Sequence record: DRR723986_4811
Length of the DNA: 64,000 nt
Direction: 5' to 3' (one strand)
The notes under the pieces are model-generated. The model was not told where the DNA came from. It was given only the letters and a program-made list of their open reading frames with translations, and searched no databases. Both the position numbers and the translations under genes were made by a program. Below are positions 101 through 53,116 of the stretch, piece after piece (the stretch's first letter is position 1; every line of letters starts with the position of its first letter).

Positions 101-790
101 CTAAGCCGTCACCCCGAATAATGCACCTACTCCTGCTGTCAGGCCCATGGCCAATGCGCCCCAAAAGGTGACGCGTACCGCAGCGATTCCCATGGAGGAG
201 CCACCCGCTTGAGCGGCGAGTGCGCCCAACCCCGCAAGAAATACAAGAGAGCCGCCAGCGACACCCCACATCAAGCTTGTTGAGGGCAGCAAGAAGGCAA
301 CCAGCAATGGCAGGAGGGCGCCAGCAGCAAAAGTAGCTGCGGAAGCCAAGGCGGCTTGCACAGGCTTTGCTGCCAGTGCGTCTGACAAACCAAGCTCATC
401 GCGCGCGTGGGCTCCCAATGCGTCGTGTTCCATCAATTGGCTTGCAACCTGTTTGGCAAGATTTTCATCAAGCCCCCGCTCAACATAAATCGATGTCAAT
501 TCCGCATGCTCATGGTCGGGTTGATTGGCCAGTTCCGCGCGCTCACGTGCGAGGTCTGCTTTTTCTGTATCAGCTTGCGAACTCACTGATACATATTCCC
601 CTGCGGCCATCGACATGGCGCCAGCCACCAGGCCAGCCATACCTGCGACTAAAATCGCTTGTGAACCTGCACCAGTCGCCGCCACACCCAACACCAGACT
701 AGCGGTGGACACAATGCCATCATTGGCACCGAGTACTGCTGCGCGTAGCCAACCGGTGCGGTGACCTTTGTGTTTTTCAAGATGTCTCAT
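101..790 (-). CDS. VIT1/CCC1 family Fe/Mn transporter (nodulin-21-like)
   Basis: WLRAAVLGANDGIVS and AGAMSMAAGEYVSVSSQ signature motifs. Confidence 0.92.
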   Translation of the reverse strand: MRHLEKHKGHRTGWLRAAVLGANDGIVSTASLVLGVAATGAGSQAILVAGMAGLVAGAMSMAAGEYVSVSSQADTEKADLARERAELANQPDHEHAELTSIYVERGLDENLAKQVASQLMEHDALGAHARDELGLSDALAAKPVQAALASAATFAAGALLPLLVAFLLPSTSLMWGVAGGSLVFLAGLGALAAQAGGSSMGIAAVRVTFWGALAMGLTAGVGALFGVTA

Positions 791-8304: not shown

Positions 8305-9002
8305 GCATCCGTATTTTGTTGATTGAAGACGACCGGGAATTGGGTAAAGCCCTGCGCAACAGTTTGAGCACAGAAGGGCATTCAGTGGTCACAGCGGCCA
8401 GCTTGTCAGAAGCCAAGGCCTTGTTGGCGAATCAGCCTTCGGGCCAGGCGTTTGATTTGTATTTGCTCGATTTGGGTTTGCCCGATGGTGATGGAAAAAG
8501 TTTTCTGGAGTTGGCCCGAAGGGAAGGTAATGCGCCCGTGATTGTGATTTCGGCGCGCCCGAATGAGGGCAGCAAAATTGAGTTGCTTGACGCTGGTGCT
8601 GATGATTACTTGGTGAAGCCATTCAGCGTGGGGGAGCTCCTGGCGCGGATCCGGGTGGCCTTGCGCCACCGAGGTAATTTGGCGCAGCCAGCCACTTTGT
8701 TGTATCAGCGTGATGGCTTGAACATTGATTTGCTCAAGCGTGAAATCACATTGAATGGTGTTGAGGTTAAATTGACTCCCACCGAGTATGAACTGCTGGC
8801 GCGTCTGGTGCGAAGTGCTGGTCAGGCGGTGAGTCATCGTCAATTGCTCGCAGATGTATGGGGTCCTGAGTATTTGGAGCACACACAATACACCCGCCTG
8901 TATGTGGGCCAGCTGCGCGCAAAAATCGAGAAAAATCCGGCAGATCCCCATTTTATTTTGACGGAAACCGGTGTGGGTTACCGCATGTTGGCGGGCATCT
9001 AG
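8301..9002 (+). CDS. kdpE: KdpE-like OmpR family response regulator
   Basis: LLDLGLPDGDG, GADDYLVKPF, YTRLYVGQLRAKIE..P..P..ILTETGVGYR; its ATG overlaps the kinase stop (ATGA). Confidence 0.85.
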   Translation: MSIRILLIEDDRELGKALRNSLSTEGHSVVTAASLSEAKALLANQPSGQAFDLYLLDLGLPDGDGKSFLELARREGNAPVIVISARPNEGSKIELLDAGADDYLVKPFSVGELLARIRVALRHRGNLAQPATLLYQRDGLNIDLLKREITLNGVEVKLTPTEYELLARLVRSAGQAVSHRQLLADVWGPEYLEHTQYTRLYVGQLRAKIEKNPADPHFILTETGVGYRMLAGI

Positions 9003-13111: not shown

Positions 13112-14023
13112 ATGATTGTTCGACCCCGCCCCCGTGCGTATCAGCTCCTATTCATCCTTCGTGGTTCCGTGGTTCGTCACATTGCCTGGAAAGTGTTGGC
13201 AGTTGCAGTGTTGTCATGCCTTGTGGTGTGGTGGTCCCATGGAGAACCCATAGAATTCCTGAACGCCGGCCTGGGTACCTTTTCCATTTTGGGTTTGGCG
13301 TTATCAGTATTTTTAGGTTTCAGAAACAATGCCTGCTACGATCGTTGGTGGGAGGCACGCAAGCATTGGGGCGATTTGATCGTGCATTCCCGTAATTTGG
13401 CCCGGGAGCTTGCAGCACTGTTTCCAAATGTGGCCCAGCGCGAAGTTTTGGTCAGTTTGTTGATTGGGTTTTCTCATGCTTTGGCCGCCCGTCTTCGTGA
13501 TCAAGATGAAGCACAGGCGGTTTCGAAATGGCTGAATGAATCTGAGAAAACATCGATAAAGAAGTCCCGCAATGTGCCCAATGCGGTTCTGCAGTCATTT
13601 GATGCACGCTTGGCGGACTTTTACCGTCAAGGTTTGATTTCTGACATCGTGTATCAAATTCTGAGCCAGAAGGTGAGTGCGCTGGCCGCTGTGCAGGGGG
13701 CATGCGAACGCATAAAAACTACGCCAACACCCTTTGCATATTCCCTGTTGTTAAGGCGTACCGCATGGTTGTTCTGTTTACTGCTTCCTTTTTCACTGGC
13801 ACCCAGCCTAAATTTTTTGACCCCCTTGATTGTGGCTACCATTGCATACACCTTTTTTGGTCTTGATTACCTGGGCGATGAATTGGAGGAACCGTTTGGA
13901 CTGCTCGACAACGACTTGCCTTTGAATGCACTGGTTCGTGTCATTGAAGTGGACTTGCTGGAAAGCCTGAACAAAGAAGATTTGCCTCCCAATTTAACTC
14001 CGGTGAATTATCTGCTGCAGTAA
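13112..14023 (+). CDS. Bestrophin family (YneE-like) channel
   Basis: MIVRP start, FRNNACYDRWWEARKHWG, CERIKTTPTPFAY, ELEEPFG...NDLPL. Confidence 0.92.
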   Translation: MIVRPRPRAYQLLFILRGSVVRHIAWKVLAVAVLSCLVVWWSHGEPIEFLNAGLGTFSILGLALSVFLGFRNNACYDRWWEARKHWGDLIVHSRNLARELAALFPNVAQREVLVSLLIGFSHALAARLRDQDEAQAVSKWLNESEKTSIKKSRNVPNAVLQSFDARLADFYRQGLISDIVYQILSQKVSALAAVQGACERIKTTPTPFAYSLLLRRTAWLFCLLLPFSLAPSLNFLTPLIVATIAYTFFGLDYLGDELEEPFGLLDNDLPLNALVRVIEVDLLESLNKEDLPPNLTPVNYLLQ

Positions 14024-44173: not shown

Positions 44174-46876
44174 ATGCAGAGTTCCGCCGGCAAAAAATGG
44201 TTCGGTCGCACGCCATCTGAATGGCTGTCCAGCCTCCCGATTTTCTCACTGTTGTTGCTTACCCTGATTATTGGTACCGGCGAGATGGTGCACGGCCAGC
44301 TTTTGCGGCTGGGTGAGCGCATGTTCGGTGATCCCGAAAACCAGGTGCAGTATTTCCTGTTACGTGCCGATCCCTCTGCACCCACTTGTGAAGCCAACCC
44401 TGATATTGATGCACTGGTGGCCAAACAGGTCGCCGATGCGGAAAGCGCACCCAAATCGGATCTTGATTTGTTGTTCGGTGATGTAGCGATTGATCCCAAT
44501 GAAATTCGTGCTTCGCTGGAAGCTGCTCGAGATCAGTGTCGGGAGCGGTTCGCTGTTTACGAGCGGGTGAGCAAAGCGATTACCCCCGAAGTGGAAGTAT
44601 TCCGTGAGATTGAAACTGGCTTTTTTGGCATTTTCAAGTTTGGTACGGAAAACCGCCCATTAATTCTGTTGATCATGGTTGCAATTGCGGCCATCTCGAC
44701 CACCAAGCATTTTCACCACATTAGCCTGCGTCCACCGCGCACCAAGAAAGACTTTCAGGTCTATTCATTGGCGATGTTGGGTGCCAACTTGCTAATGACG
44801 ATTTCGGCCAGTTACTACCTGAAACTTCAATACGATTCGGGTGTGGCGGTTGAAAATCCGCTGATCAGCATTATTGCGATTGCCCTGTTCGCAGCACTGT
44901 CCTTCATCAGTTTGAAAGACGTGCTGAAGATCCCGGCGCAGGCCGAGGAGGGCGGAAGTTACGGCATGGGTCTGTTGAGTATCCCGTTGTATGCGTTCAT
45001 GGCCTTGAATGCCGGTATCAACTTCTTCATGGACGATTACGTCGCAGGTTTGGCAATTTATTTTGGTCAAATCACCGAATTGTCGAGCATTTTCCTGAAC
45101 CTGGCGTTGTACTTGTGGGCTGGTATGTTGCTCAAGCAAACCCGCGTAGTTTCCCTGTTCATGGACATTCTGCGTCCGTGGAAGTTACCGCCAGAAGTCT
45201 TCACCTACATTGTGTTGCTGGCTGCTGCGGTACCCACCGCCTACACGGGTGCTTCAGGTGTGTTCGTGATTGCCGCCGGTGCCATTGTGTACCGTGAGGT
45301 GTTGGCCGTAGGCGCCCGTCGCCACTTTGCCTTAGCAGCTACGGCCATGTCAGGTTCACTGGGTGTGGTACTTCGCCCTTGTTTGCTGATTGTGGTGATT
45401 GCAGCCCTGAACAAAGAAGTTACAACGAGCGAACTGTATGGCTGGGGTCTGTTTGTATTCATCCTGACCTCGACCATTTTCATGATCATCGCGCTGCTGA
45501 AGGCTGAAGGGCGTGTGACTGAACGTGCAAAAGCCAAAGAGGCCTTGCCACAGTCGCTGCGTGCTTTGGTACCCGTGTCGCCTTACATTCTGATCATGTT
45601 GTTGGTGGTGTATGGTTATGAGTACCTGCTGGACACCAAGCTTGACGAATTTACCGCCCCGGTGATGTTGCCTGTGATCATGTTGTTCGTGATTATTTTT
45701 GACAAGCTGCGTGGTGGTCCTACCAAAGTGGGTGGCGACACTCCGGCGGAGAAGAAAAAGAATCAGGGTCTGGAAATGGCGGTGCGTAGCGCCACCACTG
45801 AAACGATTGGTCACATCGGTGCGCTGATCATGTTGATGGCCTTGTCCATCAGCGTGGGTGGCATGATCGAACGCTCTGGCTTGATGAGCGTTGTGCCCGC
45901 CGAGATGGGCAGCATCTGGATGGCGCTGACTATCTTCATGTTCATGATGGTGTTTATCGGCATGGTGATGGACCCGTTCGGTGCGGTGATTCTTGTGTCG
46001 GCCACTGTGGCGCCAATTGCTTACAGCAATGGTATTCACCCGGTTCACTTCTGGATGATCGTGATCACTGCGTTCGAATTGGGTTACCTATCACCCCCAG
46101 TTGCGTTGAACCAGTTGCTCGCCAGGCAGGTCGTGGGTGAAGCAGAAATGGATAAGGCTGCGGAGGACACCAAACACAAACCGTTCTACTACCGATATGA
46201 ACGTTGGTTACTGCCGGTTTACACCTTGTTCATCGGTCTGTTGATCGTCACTTATGGTGGTCAAGCCTTGATCAACAACGCTGATAATCTGAAACCAGTC
46301 AGTCACTTCCTCGGTCTGGATCAACTTCGCCCGGCGGTGCTTGATCAATCTCCGACACCTGCCGTGGAGCCTCCACCCGCTGAGGTACCTGCGGCCGCAG
46401 ATCCTGCAGCAGCCATGGACCCAGCAGCAGATACCATGCTTGATCCGGCTGCGCCCGCCGCAGATGACTTGCTGGGGGGGGAAACAGCTGCTGCACCCGC
46501 AGCACCTGTTGCAGCACCGGCAGGCCCAAGCCCTGCCCAGCTTCAGGTTGAGGTAACCGAGGTGGTCAGCAATTGGGCCGCAGCCTGGAGTGCACGCGAT
46601 GTGGAGGGCTACCTCAGCTTCTACTCGGCCAACTTCGAGTTGCCTGGTGCGCAAAGCCGGGCACAATGGGAAAGCCAGCGCCGTGCCCGAATTGCAAGCA
46701 AGGCAAGTATTGAGGTCGATATCAGCAACCTGAATGTTCAGGTCAACGGTGAAGAAGCCACTGCCGAGTTTGACCAGGCCTACAAAGCCGACAAGTACTC
46801 GGACAATGTTCGCAAAACATTGCGTTTGAAGAAAGAAGACGGTCGCTGGAAAATTGTGACCGAGCAAGCCAGCTGA
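44174..46876 (+). CDS. TRAP transporter fused large permease with a Pro/Ala linker and a C-terminal NTF2-like domain
   Basis: DctM motifs TGASG, SGSLG...P, GMVMDP, GIHPVHF, GYLSPPVALN; C-terminal W..AW..RD...Y...Y..F...F.Q.Y....Y.D...K.L.......WKIV.E. Confidence 0.85.
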   Translation: MQSSAGKKWFGRTPSEWLSSLPIFSLLLLTLIIGTGEMVHGQLLRLGERMFGDPENQVQYFLLRADPSAPTCEANPDIDALVAKQVADAESAPKSDLDLLFGDVAIDPNEIRASLEAARDQCRERFAVYERVSKAITPEVEVFREIETGFFGIFKFGTENRPLILLIMVAIAAISTTKHFHHISLRPPRTKKDFQVYSLAMLGANLLMTISASYYLKLQYDSGVAVENPLISIIAIALFAALSFISLKDVLKIPAQAEEGGSYGMGLLSIPLYAFMALNAGINFFMDDYVAGLAIYFGQITELSSIFLNLALYLWAGMLLKQTRVVSLFMDILRPWKLPPEVFTYIVLLAAAVPTAYTGASGVFVIAAGAIVYREVLAVGARRHFALAATAMSGSLGVVLRPCLLIVVIAALNKEVTTSELYGWGLFVFILTSTIFMIIALLKAEGRVTERAKAKEALPQSLRALVPVSPYILIMLLVVYGYEYLLDTKLDEFTAPVMLPVIMLFVIIFDKLRGGPTKVGGDTPAEKKKNQGLEMAVRSATTETIGHIGALIMLMALSISVGGMIERSGLMSVVPAEMGSIWMALTIFMFMMVFIGMVMDPFGAVILVSATVAPIAYSNGIHPVHFWMIVITAFELGYLSPPVALNQLLARQVVGEAEMDKAAEDTKHKPFYYRYERWLLPVYTLFIGLLIVTYGGQALINNADNLKPVSHFLGLDQLRPAVLDQSPTPAVEPPPAEVPAAADPAAAMDPAADTMLDPAAPAADDLLGGETAAAPAAPVAAPAGPSPAQLQVEVTEVVSNWAAAWSARDVEGYLSFYSANFELPGAQSRAQWESQRRARIASKASIEVDISNLNVQVNGEEATAEFDQAYKADKYSDNVRKTLRLKKEDGRWKIVTEQAS

Positions 46877-46931: not shown

Positions 46932-47006
46932 TGGTCTCGCGGACAGGAATCGAACCTGTATCTAAGCCTTAGGAGGGCCTCGTACTATCCATTGTACTAC
47001 CGCGAG
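46932..47006 (-). tRNA. tRNA-Arg (anticodon CCT)
   Basis: Reverse complement CTCGCGGTAGTACAATGGATAGTACGAGGCCCTCCTAAGGCTTAGATACAGGTTCGATTCCTGTCCGCGAGACCA folds as a cloverleaf with CCA. Confidence 0.95.
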
Positions 47007-47143
47007 ATGAGCGCATTTTACACCGCAACTGGAGTCAGCCTGTACTCAAGCCTGTGCTGATTTAGAGATTTTGCTTCGCCCAGCCTTCCAAATTTAGAAA
47101 AAATCCAACACGAGTTGGGAGTTAATCAATAAATACGCCATGA

Positions 47144-47156
47144 AATCAACCGTTTG
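47144..47156 (+). promoter_or_regulatory. IHF binding site
   Basis: AATCAACCGTTTG is an exact match to WATCAANNNNTTR, 15 bp upstream of the sigma-54 promoter. Confidence 0.7.
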
Positions 47157-47171
47157 AAATTTGCATGGTCC

Positions 47172-47187
47172 TGGCATGCACACTGCA
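47172..47187 (+). promoter_or_regulatory. Sigma-54 (-24/-12) promoter of the first ECF sigma gene
   Basis: TGGCATGCACACTGCA: GG(47173-4), 10 nt, GC(47185-6); 39 nt upstream of ATG 47227. Confidence 0.75.
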
Positions 47188-47226
47188 CAACGCTTGTTAC
47201 CACACACAAGCAAACAGAGGCAGGTC

Positions 47227-47832
47227 ATGGAACACACCGCAAACGTTCAGCAGTTCGAAATCACCGTTTCAGGTATTGACGAAAACACACCAACACCGCT
47301 GACAGCTGCACAACTTTGCACGCTTGAGGACTTGTTGAAGTCGCAGCAATCGCGTTTAACCCACTTTGTGCGCAAACACCTGCGCCGTGAGGATTATGTG
47401 GATGACCTTATTCAGCAAACCCACCTGGCTGCATTTCGCAACTGGGCGAGTTTTCGTGGAGAGTCCAAACCAGAAACCTGGTTGTTTGGCATTGCACTGA
47501 ATCTGGTGAAAAACTTTCGCTACCGCGATACCAGTTTTCGCTTTCAAGCCGATGATTTTGATGAGCAGGTCAGCCTGATTCCTGCCGATTCCATGTGCGA
47601 GCCTGAAGAATCCCTGATGCGCCAGGAGCGCATGGAAACCCTGAAGTCCGCAATTGATCAGCTTCCTTGCAAAATGCAAACAGTGGTTCAGCTAGTTTTG
47701 CTTGAGGGATTGACCTATCAGGATGCTGCACTTGAACTGGATTTGCCGATCGGTACAGTGCGCTCCCGCCTTTCACGTGCAAGGGATATGCTGCGGGTGG
47801 AGGTAATGGGCTACTCCGAATCACAGCATTGA
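47227..47832 (+). CDS. ECF RNA polymerase sigma factor, HrpL/BtrS-like
   Basis: GAGG RBS; DDLIQQT, FRGESKPETWLFGIALNLVKN, YQDAALELDLPIGTVRSRLSRAR. Confidence 0.88.
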   Translation: MEHTANVQQFEITVSGIDENTPTPLTAAQLCTLEDLLKSQQSRLTHFVRKHLRREDYVDDLIQQTHLAAFRNWASFRGESKPETWLFGIALNLVKNFRYRDTSFRFQADDFDEQVSLIPADSMCEPEESLMRQERMETLKSAIDQLPCKMQTVVQLVLLEGLTYQDAALELDLPIGTVRSRLSRARDMLRVEVMGYSESQH

Positions 47833-47911
47833 CTAATCCCAAGGGGTGATTCAATGCGGGCACGCAGCATTCACAATGGGTTTTATTCATTTGATTGTGC
47901 AAACTCAAAGA

Positions 47912-49243
47912 ATGACCGAGTTAACCCTTTGTATCGAATCCCCCGAACTCAAAAGCAGGTTGCGAGCCGCTGCCTTGCTGATGCAGGCCAGTGTTCATGA
48001 ACTGTCTCTGATTGACCTGTTGGGTAAACGGAGTTTGCCGGCGCATTGGTTGCTGGTTGATCAAGGCCTGGAGCAGTTGGGCGATTTAATTGAGCACTTC
48101 AAAGCCCAGGGCAGAAAGCCTGAAACACAGATCATTCGTTTTATCGAGAAACCCTGGCAAGAGTACGTTTACCACGACATTCCCATATTTGCATCAATCG
48201 TACATCCGACCAGTCCTTTGGCTGCGGTTCAGGTACTCGAGAAGCTGATACGAACCAAACCGTTTCGTTTTGGCAAAAAGCCATTGCCCAACAGCAATCT
48301 GGGGCCTTACGGCGACGAGTTTGTCCGTTCGCAAGCCATGCGCGATGCGGTATCCCAATTGCAGCGTCTGAAGCAGCTGCCGGTCGACACCGTTTTGCTT
48401 GGACCCACCGGTGCTGGTAAAGACACAGCCGCACGTTGGCTGCACGCGAATTCTGGTGCAAAAGGGGAGTTTGTACATGTGAACTGTGCTGCACTGCCCG
48501 AGCAGCTTTTTGAATCCGAGGTATTTGGGGTCACGGCAGGTGCCTTCACTGGTGCACAAAAAGACAGGCCAGGAAAGCTGGAGCTTGCGCACAATGGAAC
48601 CTTGTACCTGGATGAAATAGACAGCTTGCCATTGTCCTGTCAAGCCAAGTTACTGAATGCCCTTCAATATCGCGGCGCAATTCGCTTGGGCGGACATGTC
48701 TTCTACAACTCGGCTTTTCGCGTGATAGCTTCGACAAAAACCAGACTTGAAACCCTGGTCGAACAGTACAAATTCCGTGAAGACCTTCACTTCAGGCTCA
48801 GTGTGTCGCAGGTTCGAATTCCTGCTTTGGCTGAGCGACTTGAGGACATTGTTCCGATGTATCGGCATTTCCTGATCGATGTCGCAGCCCAGTTCAAGCT
48901 GCAGGTGCCGCACCTTGAACTTGAGGACATTGACGAGTTGCTGAGCCGGCCATGGCCCGGCAATGTACGCGAGTTGCATGCAGTCGCGCAGCGGCATGTC
49001 ATCGGGTTGGACACACCATGTGTGGCAACGCACAGCAAGGTCAATTTGGGCCTGAAACAACGTTTGCTGGCTTTTGAGAAGGCAGTGTTGATTCAAACGC
49101 TGCATACACATCACGGGTGCGCACGCCTGGCCAGTGAAAGCCTGGGTATTCCCTTGCATTCACTGTATTACCGCATGAAACGTTTCGATCTGCTTGATAA
49201 AACCGGGAACCAATCTGAAGACAAAGCCACTCAATTGTCATGA
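47912..49243 (+). CDS. Sigma-54-dependent enhancer-binding protein (HrpR/S-like position)
   Basis: Walker A GPTGAGKD, VNCAAL, GAFTGA, Walker B LYLDEID, FREDL.FRL, WPGNVREL, C-terminal Fis-type HTH. Confidence 0.92.
   Translation: MTELTLCIESPELKSRLRAAALLMQASVHELSLIDLLGKRSLPAHWLLVDQGLEQLGDLIEHFKAQGRKPETQIIRFIEKPWQEYVYHDIPIFASIVHPTSPLAAVQVLEKLIRTKPFRFGKKPLPNSNLGPYGDEFVRSQAMRDAVSQLQRLKQLPVDTVLLGPTGAGKDTAARWLHANSGAKGEFVHVNCAALPEQLFESEVFGVTAGAFTGAQKDRPGKLELAHNGTLYLDEIDSLPLSCQAKLLNALQYRGAIRLGGHVFYNSAFRVIASTKTRLETLVEQYKFREDLHFRLSVSQVRIPALAERLEDIVPMYRHFLIDVAAQFKLQVPHLELEDIDELLSRPWPGNVRELHAVAQRHVIGLDTPCVATHSKVNLGLKQRLLAFEKAVLIQTLHTHHGCARLASESLGIPLHSLYYRMKRFDLLDKTGNQSEDKATQLS
49206..49233 (+). promoter_or_regulatory. 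hrp box (HrpL-type ECF promoter)
   Basis: GGAACC-N15-CCACTCA, an exact match to GGAACC-N15/16-CCACNNA, 48 nt upstream of ATG 49282. Confidence 0.75.
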
Positions 49244-49281
49244 AACGACGTCTATCGGCAATGCGCCTGTAACCATAAGCG

Positions 49282-49854
49282 ATGATCAATCCAAACACTC
49301 CGCCAATACAGTCTGTAGCTACTCAAGCGGGCAGTGCAGCCAACCCGTCAATTTCTGCTGCGCGTACCACATTCAAGGCCATTCTCTCCGAACTCAAAGC
49401 TCGCCCCATGAAGCCACTCTCTTTGCAGCGCTTCCCGGGTCTTTCCACACCCCGTACCCTCGCGCAACAAATCAACAGCGACACCGCCGGTGTGGTTTAG
49501 TCCCTCGCGAATTCCATGCTACAAAACTCTCCCGAAAAGTGGTTTTTGATTAACGATCAACTTGTTGAAGGTTTGGGGCATACCGAATTGTCGCAGTCAT
49601 GGGCCTGTCCTTCCGAGTTTCAGGCCACCCTGGTGTTAAACAACTATGAAAGTAACTGTCTACGGGATTGGTTGTCGCAGCGTTGGCTAGCAAAGTCTCT
49701 CGAGCAAACCTGTATTTTCGAACTTGAATATTCCAAGCTTCTTGTTTCCAGACGCATGTCGGCTAACAATGTGCTGGACGCAAAAGAGAAGTGTGAGTTG
49801 TGGATTCAGGCTGTTCTAGCCGACCGGGTCAAGGTTGCACAAAGCCAAGGCTGA
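49282..49854 (+). pseudogene. Putative secreted negative regulator (HrpV/BtrA-like) interrupted by an in-frame TAG at 49498-49500; alternatively two genes, 49282-49500 and 49516-49854
   Basis: Both ORFs share one frame (GTG GTT TAG TCC CTC GCG AAT TCC ATG); the N-terminus is Pro/Ser/Thr/Gln/Asn-rich; no clear RBS before 49516. Confidence 0.5.
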
Positions 49855-49859
49855 TTGCC

Positions 49860-50291
49860 CTAGGTCATGCCTTTGTGTTGAAAGTAGGTTTGTTTGTAGG
49901 CAAATGCCACATGAACAAAGTCTTGAAATTGAGACATGATGATGTCCTTGTTCTCGCTCACAATTTCAACACACAGGCGCAAGCAGTTGTCGTGGTTTGA
50001 AATCGCAGTTGATACACCATCGGGCATGTCATTTTTCAATTCACTAAACAGGGCCAAGGCCAGTTTAATTTGGTTTTCCTGAACCTGTAACGACTTCCCC
50101 AAGCTGAAAATTCTTGCGCTTACCCTGCAATCTGCGCCGCCAAGGTGTTGCAATTCAACTGTGAAGTTCTTTTCAAAATCAATTCGATAACCACCTTCGC
50201 CCGCACATTGCTCAGTGTCGCTGAGAGTCATTCCCAGTGATTCCAGAATCTTGTTGAGTGCCCCATATCGGGTTGCCAAATTTGCGTTCAT
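49860..50291 (-). CDS. CesT/HrpG-like type III secretion chaperone candidate
   Basis: 143 aa; helix, beta strands, helix, beta strands and an amphipathic C-terminal helix (FQDFVHVAFAYKQ), as in class I T3SS chaperones; translationally coupled to the ECF gene. Confidence 0.55.
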   Translation of the reverse strand: MNANLATRYGALNKILESLGMTLSDTEQCAGEGGYRIDFEKNFTVELQHLGGADCRVSARIFSLGKSLQVQENQIKLALALFSELKNDMPDGVSTAISNHDNCLRLCVEIVSENKDIIMSQFQDFVHVAFAYKQTYFQHKGMT

Positions 50292-50866
50292 CAGTCCATG
50301 TACAGGTCGTAGATTGATTTCAATTGGGCGCGTGACCGTGAAATTCGGGAACGTACTGTGCCAATTGGAATACCCAGAATATCTGCCGCTTCCTGGTAAG
50401 AATTACCGTGTTGAACCACCAAAACCAGGGTTTCACGCAGATCGTTGGGCAAATTACCAATCGCTGATTCGAGTTTGATGCTGAACTCGTTTTTCATGCA
50501 GTGTTGCATCGGGTCTGATCCCTCTGCTTGTTCCAGTTCAAGATCCTCATCGGAGGTGAAATGAAATTTGTACTGTGGAGAGCGGCGCGCGGTGTTCCGA
50601 ATAATATTCAGTGCAATGCCAAACAGCCAGGTCGCTCTTTTTGCATCACCTCGAAAGCTGTCCCAGCAGCAGTAAGCCTCGATCAAGGTTTGCTGGAATA
50701 CATCCTCGACCGCGTTTTCATCACGAAAATGTTTGATGATGAAGTTGCGCAACCGCTTTTCCTGCTTGGCAACCAACAATTCAAACTCCGAGCGAGTTGT
50801 TTCCAGATTCGCCCTTGAGCACCTTTGAATCGCGGTGATCTTTAACTTTGGGGCAATCGGTTTCAT
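50291..50866 (-). CDS. Second ECF sigma factor, HrpL/BtrS-like (ORF open to 50902)
   Basis: GAGAGG RBS before ATG 50866; EDVFQQT, FRGDAKRATWLFGIALNIIRN, YQEAADILGIPIGTVRSRISRSR. Confidence 0.88.
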   Translation of the reverse strand: MKPIAPKLKITAIQRCSRANLETTRSEFELLVAKQEKRLRNFIIKHFRDENAVEDVFQQTLIEAYCCWDSFRGDAKRATWLFGIALNIIRNTARRSPQYKFHFTSDEDLELEQAEGSDPMQHCMKNEFSIKLESAIGNLPNDLRETLVLVVQHGNSYQEAADILGIPIGTVRSRISRSRAQLKSIYDLYMD

Positions 50867-51060
50867 GTCGAGCCTCTCTACTTGAAACGGTAGTGGAATC
50901 ATGGTCGGCCTTGGCGAATGGTTTCAATAACGCCACAGCGTATCAAGGCTGCAAAAAGTCTGAAGAAGGTGTCACCTTGGATAGGGTGTGGGGTGACACG
51001 CTGCTTTATCAGCCTCTGAATGTGTGCTAACCACGCTTTACGAATTTCCTATCTTGGTCA

Positions 51061-51089
51061 TGAGTGCTGGCATAGCTGCCGATGGTTCC
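51061..51089 (-). promoter_or_regulatory. hrp-box-like promoter upstream of the second ECF gene
   Basis: Minus strand GGAACC-N16-GCACTCA, one mismatch to the hrp box and sharing CACTCA with the box at 49206. Confidence 0.55.
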
Positions 51090-51154
51090 AGTGCCGCCGG
51101 AAATAAACACAAATTATTGGTATCATCAAGCGGTCATTGAACTTTCAGGTTGTC

Positions 51155-53116
51155 ATGAGCCAGTATCAAGAATCGTCCATCCGCGTCCTCAAAGGGCTAG
51201 AACCGGTCAAGCAGCGGCCGGGCATGTACACCCGCACGGACTGCCCCTTGCACATTATTCAAGAGGTGATCGACAACGCAGCCGATGAGGCTTTGGGTGG
51301 TTTTGGTTCGCGAATTACGGTGACTATTCATACCGATGGCAGTGTGTCGGTACAGGATGAGGGTCGCGGCATTCCAATTGGTTTGCACCCTGAAGAGAAG
51401 GTACCCGTCATTGAACTCGTATTCACCCGTTTGCATGCGGGTGGCAAGTTCAACAAAGCCGATGGTGGTGCTTATCGTTTTTCGGGCGGTCTGCATGGTG
51501 TAGGTGTTTCGGTGACCAATGCCCTCTCTACCAGGCTTGAAGTGAGTGCGGTGCGCGACAAGCAGGTGGGCACACTGGTGTTTAGTGGTGGCGATGTAAT
51601 AGAACCTTTGAAGGTTCGCCCTCAAACCAGCAGTGATCCTAAAAAAGGCACCACCGTACGCGTGTGGCCAGATCCCCAGTATTTCGATTCAGCCGTCTTG
51701 CCACTCAATGAGATGGACCGCCTGTTGCGCAGCAAGGCAGTGCTGCTCAAGGGGGTCGAAGTGGTCTTGGTGTCGGAGAAAACCGGTGAAGCAAAGCGCT
51801 GGAAATTCGATGATGGTCTCAGCGGTTTTTTACGCGAAGAATTGTTGGACCGTGAACTGGTGGCCCCGATGTTCAGCGGTGATCTCAGTGTTGATGTACT
51901 CCGCGATGAAGGCTTTGCAGAAGGCGAGGGCGCGGCATGGGCGTTGGCATTTGTGGCTGAAGGCGCACCTGTTCGCGAAAGTTATGTGAACTTGATTCCC
52001 ACCTCCGCAGGTGGTACGCATGAGTCCGGCCTGCGCGAGGCGGTTTTTCAGGCCATCAAGGCTTTCTGTGAAATGCATTCGTTGATGCCAAAGGGGATCA
52101 AGTTGATGCCCGATGACATCTTTTCCAAGGCGAATTTTGTGCTGTCTGCCAAGGTTCTGGACCCTCAGTTTCAGGGGCAAATCAAGGAGCGTTTGAATAG
52201 CCGTGATGCAGTGCGTCTGGTGTCGTCACTGGTCAAGCCTGCGTTCGAGTTGTGGTTGAATCAGCATGTGGAAGACGGCAAAAAGATTGCAGAGCTCGCA
52301 ATCAAGCAAGCTCAGGCTCGATCCAGAGCGGCACAAAAAGTAGAGAAGAAAAAAAGTTCATCGGTGGCGATTTTGCCGGGCAAGCTGACTGACTGCGAAA
52401 GCACTGATATCACCTTGAACGAGGTTTTTCTGGTTGAGGGTGATTCTGCTGGCGGCTCAGCCAAGATGGGCCGTGACAAGGAGTTTCAGGCGGTATTGCC
52501 ACTGCGTGGCAAAGTGCTTAATGCTTGGGAAACCGACAAAGACCGATTGTTTGCCAACCAGGAAATTCACGACATTGCAGTGGCCATCGGTGTAGACCCC
52601 CACGGTGTGAATGACAATCCCGATTTAAGCGGTTTGCGTTACGGCAAAATCTGTATTCTTTCCGACGCGGATGTCGATGGTTCACACATTCAAGTGCTGC
52701 TACTCACCTTGTTTTACAAACATTTCCCAGCGTTGATTCGCAGCAAGAATTTGTATGTAGCGCGCCCGCCCTTGTTCAGGGTTGATGTACCAGCACAAGG
52801 AAAGAAACCTGCGCGCAAGCTGTATTGTCTGGATGAAGCAGAGCTGTATGCCGTGCAAGACAAGCTGGGCAAGGAAGGCGTGAAAGAGGCGAATATCAAG
52901 ATTTCCCGTTTCAAGGGTTTGGGCGAGATGAATGCTGAACAACTCTGGGAAACTACTTTGAATCCAGATACACGCCGTTTGCTGCCTGTTACATTGGGCA
53001 GTCTTGATGTTGATGAAACCAATGCCATGATGCACATGCTGATGGGCCGTACTGAAAGTGGTGCTCGCCGCACCTGGCTGGAAGACAAGGGCAACTTGGT
53101 GGAAGTGGATATCTGA
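51155..53116 (+). CDS. parE: DNA topoisomerase IV subunit B
   Basis: VLKGLEPVKQRPGMYT, SGGLHGVG, VEGDSAGGSAK, DADVDG, RFKGLGEMN; no GyrB insertion; PQFQGQIKERL. Confidence 0.93.
   Translation: MSQYQESSIRVLKGLEPVKQRPGMYTRTDCPLHIIQEVIDNAADEALGGFGSRITVTIHTDGSVSVQDEGRGIPIGLHPEEKVPVIELVFTRLHAGGKFNKADGGAYRFSGGLHGVGVSVTNALSTRLEVSAVRDKQVGTLVFSGGDVIEPLKVRPQTSSDPKKGTTVRVWPDPQYFDSAVLPLNEMDRLLRSKAVLLKGVEVVLVSEKTGEAKRWKFDDGLSGFLREELLDRELVAPMFSGDLSVDVLRDEGFAEGEGAAWALAFVAEGAPVRESYVNLIPTSAGGTHESGLREAVFQAIKAFCEMHSLMPKGIKLMPDDIFSKANFVLSAKVLDPQFQGQIKERLNSRDAVRLVSSLVKPAFELWLNQHVEDGKKIAELAIKQAQARSRAAQKVEKKKSSSVAILPGKLTDCESTDITLNEVFLVEGDSAGGSAKMGRDKEFQAVLPLRGKVLNAWETDKDRLFANQEIHDIAVAIGVDPHGVNDNPDLSGLRYGKICILSDADVDGSHIQVLLLTLFYKHFPALIRSKNLYVARPPLFRVDVPAQGKKPARKLYCLDEAELYAVQDKLGKEGVKEANIKISRFKGLGEMNAEQLWETTLNPDTRRLLPVTLGSLDVDETNAMMHMLMGRTESGARRTWLEDKGNLVEVDI

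Follow-up and report, generated by a model that had tools for sequence, protein, structure and literature searches.

A cassette of six regulatory genes occupies about 4 kb between tRNA-Arg(CCT) and parE in a 64-kb stretch of DNA from sequence record DRR723986_4811 (hereafter the window; cassette coordinates are those of the whole stretch). The genes encode two HrpL-like sigma factors of the extracytoplasmic function (ECF) type, ECF1 and ECF2, a sigma-54 enhancer-binding protein (the activator) and three small proteins, s72, s112 and c143. The cassette probably acts throughout Limnobacter as the master switch of a Hrp-type regulon and is set apart from the secretion genes; we put the probability of this reading at about 0.65. 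Its logic looks like that of the HrpS/sigma-54/HrpL cascade in a rewired form, judging from genes and promoter motifs. Statements at the genome level rest on the nearest genome, G001, taken as a proxy, and on other Limnobacter genomes. G001 and the window have 72% of sampled 31-mers in common, and their cassettes are 99% identical. The top protein matches of ECF1 are from Limnobacter, with 97% identity to Limnobacter sp. SAORIC-690.

HrpL-type control is textbook knowledge in plant pathogens, in which the sigma gene belongs to the secretion cluster. In Limnobacter, a betaproteobacterial genus of free-living water bacteria, the same promoter logic takes the form of a separate, genus-conserved module with two sigma factors and accessory proteins of predicted chaperone fold, and strong selection maintains this module even where the injectisome has been lost. 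The module offers a natural system for studying how a virulence-type master switch is rewired to cyclic di-GMP (c-di-GMP) and orphan-protein outputs, and whether chaperone-fold proteins can gate ECF sigma factors.

Genes and promoters of the cassette

The features of the cassette and its borders are listed below.

46932-47006, minus strand: tRNA-Arg(CCT), left border of the cassette (ARAGORN; Rfam tRNA, 65.9 bits)
47118-47136, plus strand: upstream block GAGTTAATCAATAAATA, a candidate binding region for the activator or for integration host factor (IHF), largely conserved in a 6-genome alignment
47144-47156, plus strand: IHF-like site AATCAACCGTTTG, with its midpoint some 23 nt 5' of the -24 GG
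47172-47187, plus strand: putative sigma-54 type -24/-12 promoter TGGCATGCACACTGCA (motif TGGCAT-N5-CTGCA) of the ECF1-activator operon
47227-47832, plus strand: ECF1, HrpL-like ECF sigma factor, 201 aa (Pfam Sigma70_r2 and Sigma70_r4_2)
47912-49243, plus strand: activator, sigma-54 enhancer-binding protein, 443 aa (Pfam Sigma54_activat, 5.8e-52; AAA lid; HTH_8)
49206-49233, plus strand: box 1, GGAACC-N15-CCACTCA(AT), for s72-s112, inside the 3' end of the activator gene
49282-49500, plus strand: s72, basic protein of 72 aa, candidate exported regulator (from its composition)
49516-49854, plus strand: s112, acidic folded protein (AlphaFold2 (AF2) model, pLDDT 87)
50291-49860, minus strand: c143, 143 aa, predicted class-I type III secretion system (T3SS) chaperone fold, overlapping ECF2 by one base
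50902-50291, minus strand: ECF2, second HrpL-like ECF sigma factor, 203 aa (Pfam Sigma70_r2 and Sigma70_r4_2)
51089-51061, minus strand: box 2, GGAACC-N16-GCACTCA, for ECF2-c143, with a leader of about 150 nt
51137-53116, plus strand: parE (topoisomerase IV subunit B), right border (Pfam GyrB/Toprim domains)

Strict matches to GGAACC-N15/16-(C/G)CACTCA occur twice in the window, against a mean of 0.00 expected from 100 dinucleotide-preserving shuffles. One of them, box 1, reads GGAACC-N15-CCACTCAAT and is an exact match to the published HrpL consensus (PMC3487950). Both boxes are widely conserved. Box 1 was found in 24 of 25 Limnobacter genomes (18 as GGAAC, 6 as TGAAC), and box 2, located 132-259 nt upstream of ECF2, was likewise found in 24 of 25; the spacers of both diverge widely. 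Box 1 always combines N15 with CCAC, and box 2 mostly N16 with GCAC. An earlier note on this DNA, made from the letters alone, had described a perfect hrp box before a pair of small open reading frames (ORFs) rich in S/T/P/Q. The box is indeed exact and s72 is rich in these residues, but s112 is acidic and folded. The second hrp-box-like promoter that the note had placed on the minus strand, ahead of ECF2 and a chaperone-sized ORF, corresponds to box 2. A single relaxed match, TGAACC-N16-CACACCCA, is also present at positions 662-690 (+) of the window. The leader between box 2 and ECF2 contains an inverted repeat, GGTGTCACC ... GGTGACAC, at 50968-51003; folding of this leader gave z = -1.8 at best.

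The -24/-12 motif sits 40 nt before the ECF1 start. The earlier note had placed it, together with an IHF site, ahead of ECF1; like all other elements that the note describes, both are present at the positions given or a few bases away. Since the sigma-54 pattern by itself is not rare (3 matches in the window versus 0.94 expected), support for this promoter comes from conservation: GG-N10-GC is kept in all six genomes examined for that region, and the spacers differ in the two most distant, G083 and G042. At the position of the IHF-like site, a strict match to WATCAANNNNTTR was found in four of the six genomes, and near-matches in the remaining two. The rpoN gene was found in both G001 and G193.

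The ORF downstream of ECF1 had been read as a GAFTGA activator, in agreement with its Pfam domains and with the GAFTGA motif at residue 210, inside the AAA+ domain; a helix-turn-helix (HTH) domain is located at the C-terminus. The true start is at 47912 (MTELTLC..., kept in 6/6 orthologues) and not at the start of the longest ORF. The protein is 44% identical to HrpS of Pantoea stewartii over 281 aa, a level that is also common between unrelated activators. Atypically, the AAA+ domain is preceded by a conserved N-terminal domain of about 150 aa, which has no Pfam match up to E = 5. An atlas search with this domain gave leads only, to receiver-like domains of the VpsR or FleQ type (0.85-0.89), known members of which sense c-di-GMP. 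The idea that the activator carries a hypervariable receptor was dropped, as its identities to orthologues are 90, 82, 76, 63 and 57%.

ECF1 and ECF2 pass the TIGR02937 superfamily model, and NCBIfam assigns both to the ECF superfamily only. The two proteins are 40% identical, and ECF2 bears a conserved N-terminal extension of about 40 aa. A 61-bp stretch is common to ECF1 (47443-47503) and ECF2 (50607-50667), in inverted orientation and with 79% DNA identity, a finding that fits an old duplication of the two genes. HrpL of P. stewartii, picked by its annotated context (sctW, sctV, a PAS kinase, a response regulator, a sigma-54 regulator and HrpA), was compared with the sigma-family ORFs from the 13 loci of G193 that exceed the TIGR02937 cut-off. 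Its two best matches were ECF1 (35%, 101 bits) and ECF2 (37%, 93 bits), with an RpoE-like sigma close behind at 86 bits. Pairwise scores of ECF1 and ECF2 lean towards HrpL, at 101 and 93 bits versus 85-87 bits to the RpoE-like sigma of the same genome (85 bits for ECF1). In two maximum-likelihood trees (25 and 23 rows), ECF1, ECF2, Pantoea HrpL, T3SS-linked betaproteobacterial sigmas and the RpoE-like sigma emerge from one fork. Because the trees do not resolve the sigma groups, membership of ECF1 and ECF2 in ECF32 is put as likely only. ECF32 members are described as not auto-regulated (PMC7826278). ECF1, with a -24/-12 promoter in 6/6 genomes and no box upstream, fits this pattern; ECF2, which has a box upstream, departs from it.

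Relatives of ECF2 at E <= 1e-28 were found in 8 of 401 genomes sampled from the order, 3 of them Limnobacter and 5 others. In five of the six non-Limnobacter loci, the sigma gene lies among sctC, sctV, sctN, sctJ, sctU or sctR genes. With queries from the window, no relatives of c143, s112, s72 or the activator were found within 10 kb of the T3SS-linked sigmas in the five other Burkholderiales genomes. An unannotated ECF sigma that is 45% identical to ECF2 is encoded on pAB510a of Azospirillum sp. B510 (604165-620635; L098), where box-like motifs occur at the 3' end of the sigma gene (position 8484 of the locus) and at position 13959.

The small proteins differ in character. In s72 (isoelectric point (pI) 11.6), the first 30 residues are of low complexity and 80% S/T/P/Q/N/A/G, and the first 36 include no acidic residue; such an N-terminal composition is typical of type III export signals. 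Orthologues of s72 have the motifs TF(K/R)..L and RPL in common. No Pfam match was found for s72 up to E = 5, FlgM included, which makes membership in the FlgM family less likely and does not lower the idea that s72 works like FlgM. The AF2 model of c143 (pLDDT 85; pI 5.5) has the order helix-strand-strand-strand-helix-strand-strand-helix, the topology of class-I T3SS chaperones, and a predicted T3SS chaperone fold accordingly underlies what the earlier note had called a chaperone-sized ORF. The best Foldseek match of c143 is ExsC in the ExsC-ExsE complex (3kxy; E 1e-5, TM 0.62-0.67), followed by SicP, VecA and SigE. There are 15 PDB matches at E <= 0.001 and, among the matches listed, all are T3SS chaperones but the uncharacterised 3cxj. 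No Pfam CesT match was obtained for c143. The s112 model runs strand-strand-strand-helix-strand-strand-helix, the first chaperone helix being absent. Foldseek returned no match for s112 at E <= 0.001. VIA Z values were 8.4 for a START domain, 7.5 for STM2138, 6.7 for YscB and 6.0 for ExsC (5.2-7.5 for chaperones overall), and s112 possibly adopts a chaperone-like fold lacking the first helix.

Conservation, predicted regulon and secretion genes

Relatives of c143 are present in 25 of 26 Limnobacter genomes, the single miss being a 72%-complete genome, and in none of 194 genomes from the same family, sampled across 50 other genera. The order activator-s72-s112-c143-ECF2-parE is held in 24 of 25 loci; parE is the neighbour, and ECF2 and c143 occur together, in all 25. 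The location between tRNA-Arg and parE, pointed out in the earlier note, recurs in 24 of the 25 Limnobacter loci. The exception to the gene order, G116, retains ECF2, c143 and the small genes, and features zwf instead of ECF1 and the activator.

All six cassette genes are under purifying selection. The ratio of nonsynonymous to synonymous substitution rates (dN/dS) between the window and G193 is 0.00 for ECF2, 0.08 for both ECF1 and the activator, 0.075 for c143, 0.13 for s72 and 0.18 for s112, compared with 0.009 for ParE; the small ORFs are therefore real genes. Across comparisons, dN/dS is 0.07-0.08 for ECF1. ECF2 is 100% identical to its G193 counterpart at a dS of 0.28 and 99.5% identical to that of G145. 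Over dS values of 0.28-0.76, its dN/dS does not exceed 0.003, and ECF2 is therefore constrained like a housekeeping enzyme.

An extra FHIPEP gene, scoring 594-691 bits, was found in 18 of 26 Limnobacter genomes. G206 has a fragmented and G042 a truncated copy instead, and there is none in G001, G083, G211, G212, G213 and G214. In G193, the extra FHIPEP gene is part of an injectisome cluster that is complete, with sctV, D, N, Q, R, T, U, C and J and an SseC-like translocator, and is located about 1.28 Mb from the cassette, so that the separation from T3SS structural genes noted in the 64-kb stretch holds on the chromosome. In the other genomes, an extra FHIPEP of the 594-691-bit class presumably is an injectisome gene as well, in which case 18 of 26 would possess an injectisome. 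Most sampled Limnobacter genomes thus carry an injectisome-type export gene, and the full cluster is confirmed in G193. The search for sct genes that the earlier note had recommended points to an injectisome cluster in 18 of 26 genomes, but to a remnant only in the nearest one. An earlier description of Limnobacter isolates mentions possible T3SS homologues and leaves open whether they are mis-annotated flagellar genes (PMC4557100).

The sole FHIPEP of G001 is flagellar (886 bits with the FlhA model, over its cut-off; 602 with the hrcV model, below it), and no secretin of G001 exceeds the SctC cut-off. At the same chromosomal site as the G193 cluster, G001 (C27:28500-36000, L069) keeps a remnant of some 6 kb, in which sctU, sctT and a truncated sctN are left and neither sctV nor sctC was found. 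The remnant retains two box-like motifs, one before a GNAT gene and one before a 394-aa orphan ORF. This decayed island, which holds three orphan ORFs besides the GNAT gene, is situated between metH and an acyl-CoA dehydrogenase gene. Protein identity to the full G193 cluster is only 30-50%, although the flanks are 91% identical. Seven Limnobacter genomes (G203, G212, G213, G215, G216, G218 and G219) possess a second FHIPEP of 870-878 bits, near the score of the flagellar copy, which suggests a second flagellar-type system.

Motifs of the form (G/T)GAAC(C/T)-N14-17-NCACNNA are found upstream of the injectisome sctV gene in 13 of 18 genomes, 40-180 nt before sctV. All 13 fall into a stretch of about 55 nt, although their spacers differ greatly. 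Inspection by eye revealed near-misses in four further genomes (G217, G208, G205 and G145). Over 60 kb around the G193 cluster, a somewhat looser pattern gave 4 matches versus 1.06 expected; two of these matches precede the first genes of the two convergent T3SS operons, by 40 nt and 28 nt. As a positive control, the same regular expressions were applied to Pantoea clusters, where they recovered both the hrp boxes and the sigma-54 promoter of hrpL.

Matches to GGAACC-N15/16-(C/G)CACNNA in G001 include the two in the cassette and others before a gene for a 153-aa protein, a GGDEF (diguanylate cyclase) gene and an unclassified small gene. For the GGDEF gene and likewise for the 153-aa gene, at least 16 of 22 orthologous loci retain the box; some loci have cut flanks, so that the true numbers may be higher. 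At the level of motifs, the sctV boxes and these two conserved boxes bear out the earlier suggestion that the cassette may control an unlinked secretion or host-interaction regulon, as far as secretion is concerned. The 153-aa protein gave CesT/YbjN leads in the atlas and would represent a second chaperone-like gene product, and it has no sequence similarity to c143. In five other genomes, further box matches precede genes of orphan proteins with low-complexity N-termini and no Pfam family. In G193, GGAACC-N16-GCACCCA occurs before a 325-aa gene (C1:221733, L037), 1.7 kb from another ECF paralogue (C1:223469-223930, L079); this box may instead belong to the regulon of that neighbouring paralogue.

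Proposed circuit and competing explanations

In the circuit that we propose, the enhancer-binding protein and sigma-54, probably with IHF, would fire the -24/-12 promoter and transcribe ECF1 together with the activator gene, which would create a positive loop. The promoters recognised by ECF1 and/or ECF2 would follow the pattern (G/T)GAAC(C/T)-N15/16-NCAC(T)(C)A. Within the cassette, these boxes would drive s72-s112 and ECF2-c143, so that ECF2 would be switched on by ECF1 and/or by itself. Elsewhere, they would drive the sctV operon (where present), the diguanylate cyclase gene, the second chaperone-like gene and orphan genes that vary with the species. Together with the acidic s112 and c143, s72, which is basic and looks disordered, would most likely form a partner-switching layer that tunes the activity of a sigma factor or of the activator and is possibly coupled to the export of s72. 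The sigma-to-box pairing, the order of the cascade, the protein-protein contacts and the input signal in this scheme are those that we infer from the arrangement of genes and motifs. The same applies to the roles given to s72, s112 and c143, including the antagonist role that the small ORFs could play, as the earlier note had it.

G116, which has an injectisome-type FHIPEP and an sctV motif and possesses ECF2 alone, suggests that ECF2 probably reads the boxes by itself and that the sigma-54 arm is an added trigger. The persistence of the cassette and of its non-T3SS targets in genomes without an injectisome suggests a regulon wider than secretion.

Several points weigh against a master switch of a Hrp-type regulon. 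Every promoter in this analysis is a motif call, and neither tree parts ECF1, ECF2 and HrpL from the RpoE-like sigma. No motif was found upstream of sctV in G202. The strict box pattern is absent from the T3SS cluster of G193, and the G193 sctV motifs are weaker variants (TGAACT ... TCACACA). A whole-genome search for hrp boxes, advised in the earlier note, revealed no enrichment in G001, where GGAACC-N15/16-(C/G)CACNNA has 6 matches versus 24 in the reversed control, but five of the six lie within 60 nt upstream of a gene start. The sigma-54 arm is dispensable in at least one lineage, as evidenced by the absence of ECF1 and the activator from G116. The cassette is equally conserved in genomes without a full-length injectisome-type FHIPEP (G001, G083, G211, G212 and G213), and T3SS control is thus not its only role. 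Moreover, the T3SS state of the window's genome is deduced from G001, which has no working injectisome.

A different arrangement of the same parts would make the two sigma factors parallel rather than successive. As paralogues with the same promoter specificity, they would respond to different inputs: ECF1 would be made only when the activator and sigma-54 fire, ECF2 would be autoregulated from box 2, and c143, co-translated with ECF2, would be a chaperone-fold anti-sigma factor that restrains it after translation. In favour of this arrangement, the target boxes hardly differ from box 1 and box 2; ECF2 and c143 overlap by one base and stay together in 25/25 loci, G116 runs with ECF2 alone, and the conserved N-terminal extension of ECF2 also fits. 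The binding of c143 to ECF2 is, however, a supposition, and the N15-CCAC form of box 1 as opposed to the mostly N16-GCAC form of box 2 could mean that specificities are split. We regard parallel sigma factors as a possible but doubtful account. The absence of a strict box from the G193 cluster could also be taken to mean that the cassette is a general lifestyle switch, concerned with c-di-GMP or surface behaviour and with no true tie to the T3SS, the sctV motifs being weak look-alikes or belonging to another ECF sigma. Strong selection on the cassette in injectisome-free genomes, the conservation of the diguanylate cyclase box in 16 of 22 loci and the leads from the activator N-terminal domain to VpsR/FleQ-type domains, with their c-di-GMP sensing, point the same way. 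Such a switch seems improbable in view of the sctV motif, which is confined to about 55 nt in 13 of 18 genomes with very different spacers, and of the motif at the second T3SS operon of G193. In addition, the closest relatives of the sigma factors outside the genus sit inside T3SS clusters, and two or three proteins of the regulon have, or may have, T3SS chaperone folds.

Given that G001, with its 99% identical cassette, keeps only a 6-kb remnant with no sctV and no secretin over the cut-off, the cassette in the window's lineage might be an orphaned relic that decays without function after the loss of the injectisome. The six ORFs are intact, however, and the comparison of the window with G193 gives dN/dS values of 0-0.18, with complete (100%) identity of ECF2 at a dS of 0.28; the non-T3SS targets are still boxed in G001; a relic is very unlikely. 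The master switch of a Hrp-type regulon remains the preferred reading.

A bolder and rather unlikely version of this switch is a secretion-coupled bistable device of an undescribed kind. Export of s72, via the injectisome or via the flagellar apparatus where the injectisome has been lost, would re-sort s112 and c143 and free the almost invariant ECF2; ECF1, triggered through sigma-54, would ignite the loop, and the diguanylate cyclase of the regulon would set c-di-GMP levels. If this were true, c143 would be the first anti-sigma (or anti-anti-sigma) factor of chaperone fold to act on an ECF sigma, and the survival of the cassette after loss of the T3SS would be explained.

Relation to known systems and surroundings of the cassette

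The Hrp-like architecture claimed in the earlier note has a parallel in the hrp region of P. stewartii: in both, the sigma gene follows a sigma-54 type promoter at a distance of about 40-65 nt, and boxes of the form GGAACC-N15-CCACNNA are present. More generally, the cassette resembles HrpS/sigma-54/HrpL systems (Pantoea, Erwinia and Pseudomonas syringae; Hrp group I, ECF32) in its activator with GAFTGA and a C-terminal HTH, in the -24/-12 promoter just upstream of an ECF sigma gene and in its GGAACC-N15/16-CCACNNA boxes. Like hrpA in Pantoea, s72 lies directly 3' of the activator gene and appears to be box-driven. HrpRS and sigma-54 are described as controlling the transcription of HrpL (PMC8999054). 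Unlike these systems, the cassette is unlinked from a T3SS cluster, has a duplicated sigma factor with one copy apparently box-driven, and brings its own accessory proteins of predicted chaperone fold. ECF1 is apparently co-transcribed with the activator, and no HrpX/HrpY two-component genes adjoin the cassette. In contrast to HrpS (323 aa in P. stewartii; about 300-325 aa in proteins of this type, which lack an N-terminal domain), the activator has an extra 150 aa or so. Although their location recalls Pantoea, s72 and s112 have no sequence similarity to either HrpA or HrpB.

Other regulatory systems resemble single parts of the cassette. The match of c143 to ExsC, the best structural one and from the ExsC-ExsE complex, is reminiscent of the ExsA-ExsD-ExsC-ExsE switch of Pseudomonas aeruginosa, and s72, a small, basic, low-complexity protein of 72 aa encoded near c143, would be comparable to ExsE, a secreted regulator that is likewise small (about 80 aa). 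Unlike in the Exs switch, the output regulator of the cassette is an ECF sigma or an enhancer-binding protein and not an AraC-type protein, and there is no ExsD-like protein. In P. syringae and Erwinia, HrpS is modulated by the anti-activator HrpV and the chaperone-like HrpG, the genes of which are inside the T3SS cluster. By general resemblance, HrpV and HrpG are similar in size to the cassette proteins, and a small and a chaperone-like protein likewise accompany an HrpS-type activator and an HrpL-type sigma. Secreted anti-sigma factors are known from flagella (FlgM-sigma28) and from Bordetella (BtrA-BtrS). The likeness of s72 to FlgM and BtrA is one of idea only, namely that a disordered small protein exported by a type III machine frees a sigma factor; the N-terminal composition of s72 matches this idea, but the Pfam search up to E = 5 gave no FlgM match for it.

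Within the Burkholderiales, the account of Herbaspirillum describes a single hrpL inside the T3SS cluster, which has no sigma-54 promoter, and GGAACC-N15-CCACTCAAT boxes before the hrp operons (PMC3487950). Box 1 matches this hrp-box consensus exactly. Unlike hrpL in Herbaspirillum, the sigma genes of the cassette are unlinked and duplicated, and ECF1 is predicted to be sigma-54 driven. A second comparison is offered by plasmid pA of Vibrio nigripulchritudo (L071, 187790-202317), which encodes an ECF sigma 34-36% identical to ECF1 and ECF2. The sigma-54 promoter motif TGGCACAGTTCATGCT precedes the start of this sigma by 45 nt, and a short sigma-54 activator, 45% identical over the AAA+ domain, is encoded 3 kb away. 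The Vibrio module also stands alone, as no T3SS genes are located within 7 kb on either side, and an integrase gene adjoins it. It differs from the cassette in that it has a single sigma and an activator without an N-terminal domain. With queries from the window, this module yielded no relatives of c143, s112 or s72.

No signature of a genomic island was found, the GC content being 0.48-0.53 in the cassette versus 0.49-0.55 in the flanks. Scans for sigma-70 promoters and for terminators were both run; the former gave 3 matches versus 3.7 in shuffles and hence no excess. The tRNA was the sole match in an Rfam scan. No description of the cassette was found in the literature on Limnobacter type III secretion or sigma factors, as far as covered by the titles and starts of abstracts listed.

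Upstream of the tRNA gene, a 900-aa ORF (44174-46876, +) combines a TRAP-transporter DctM-type permease (residues 344-661) with a C-terminal Cds6_C/NTF2-like domain. The two parts of this unusual fusion are connected by an Ala/Pro-rich linker. In G193, a sequence of some 148 bp immediately upstream of metH (L059:376-523) recurs at 75-92% identity in at least 15 places of G001 and looks like a dispersed short repeat.

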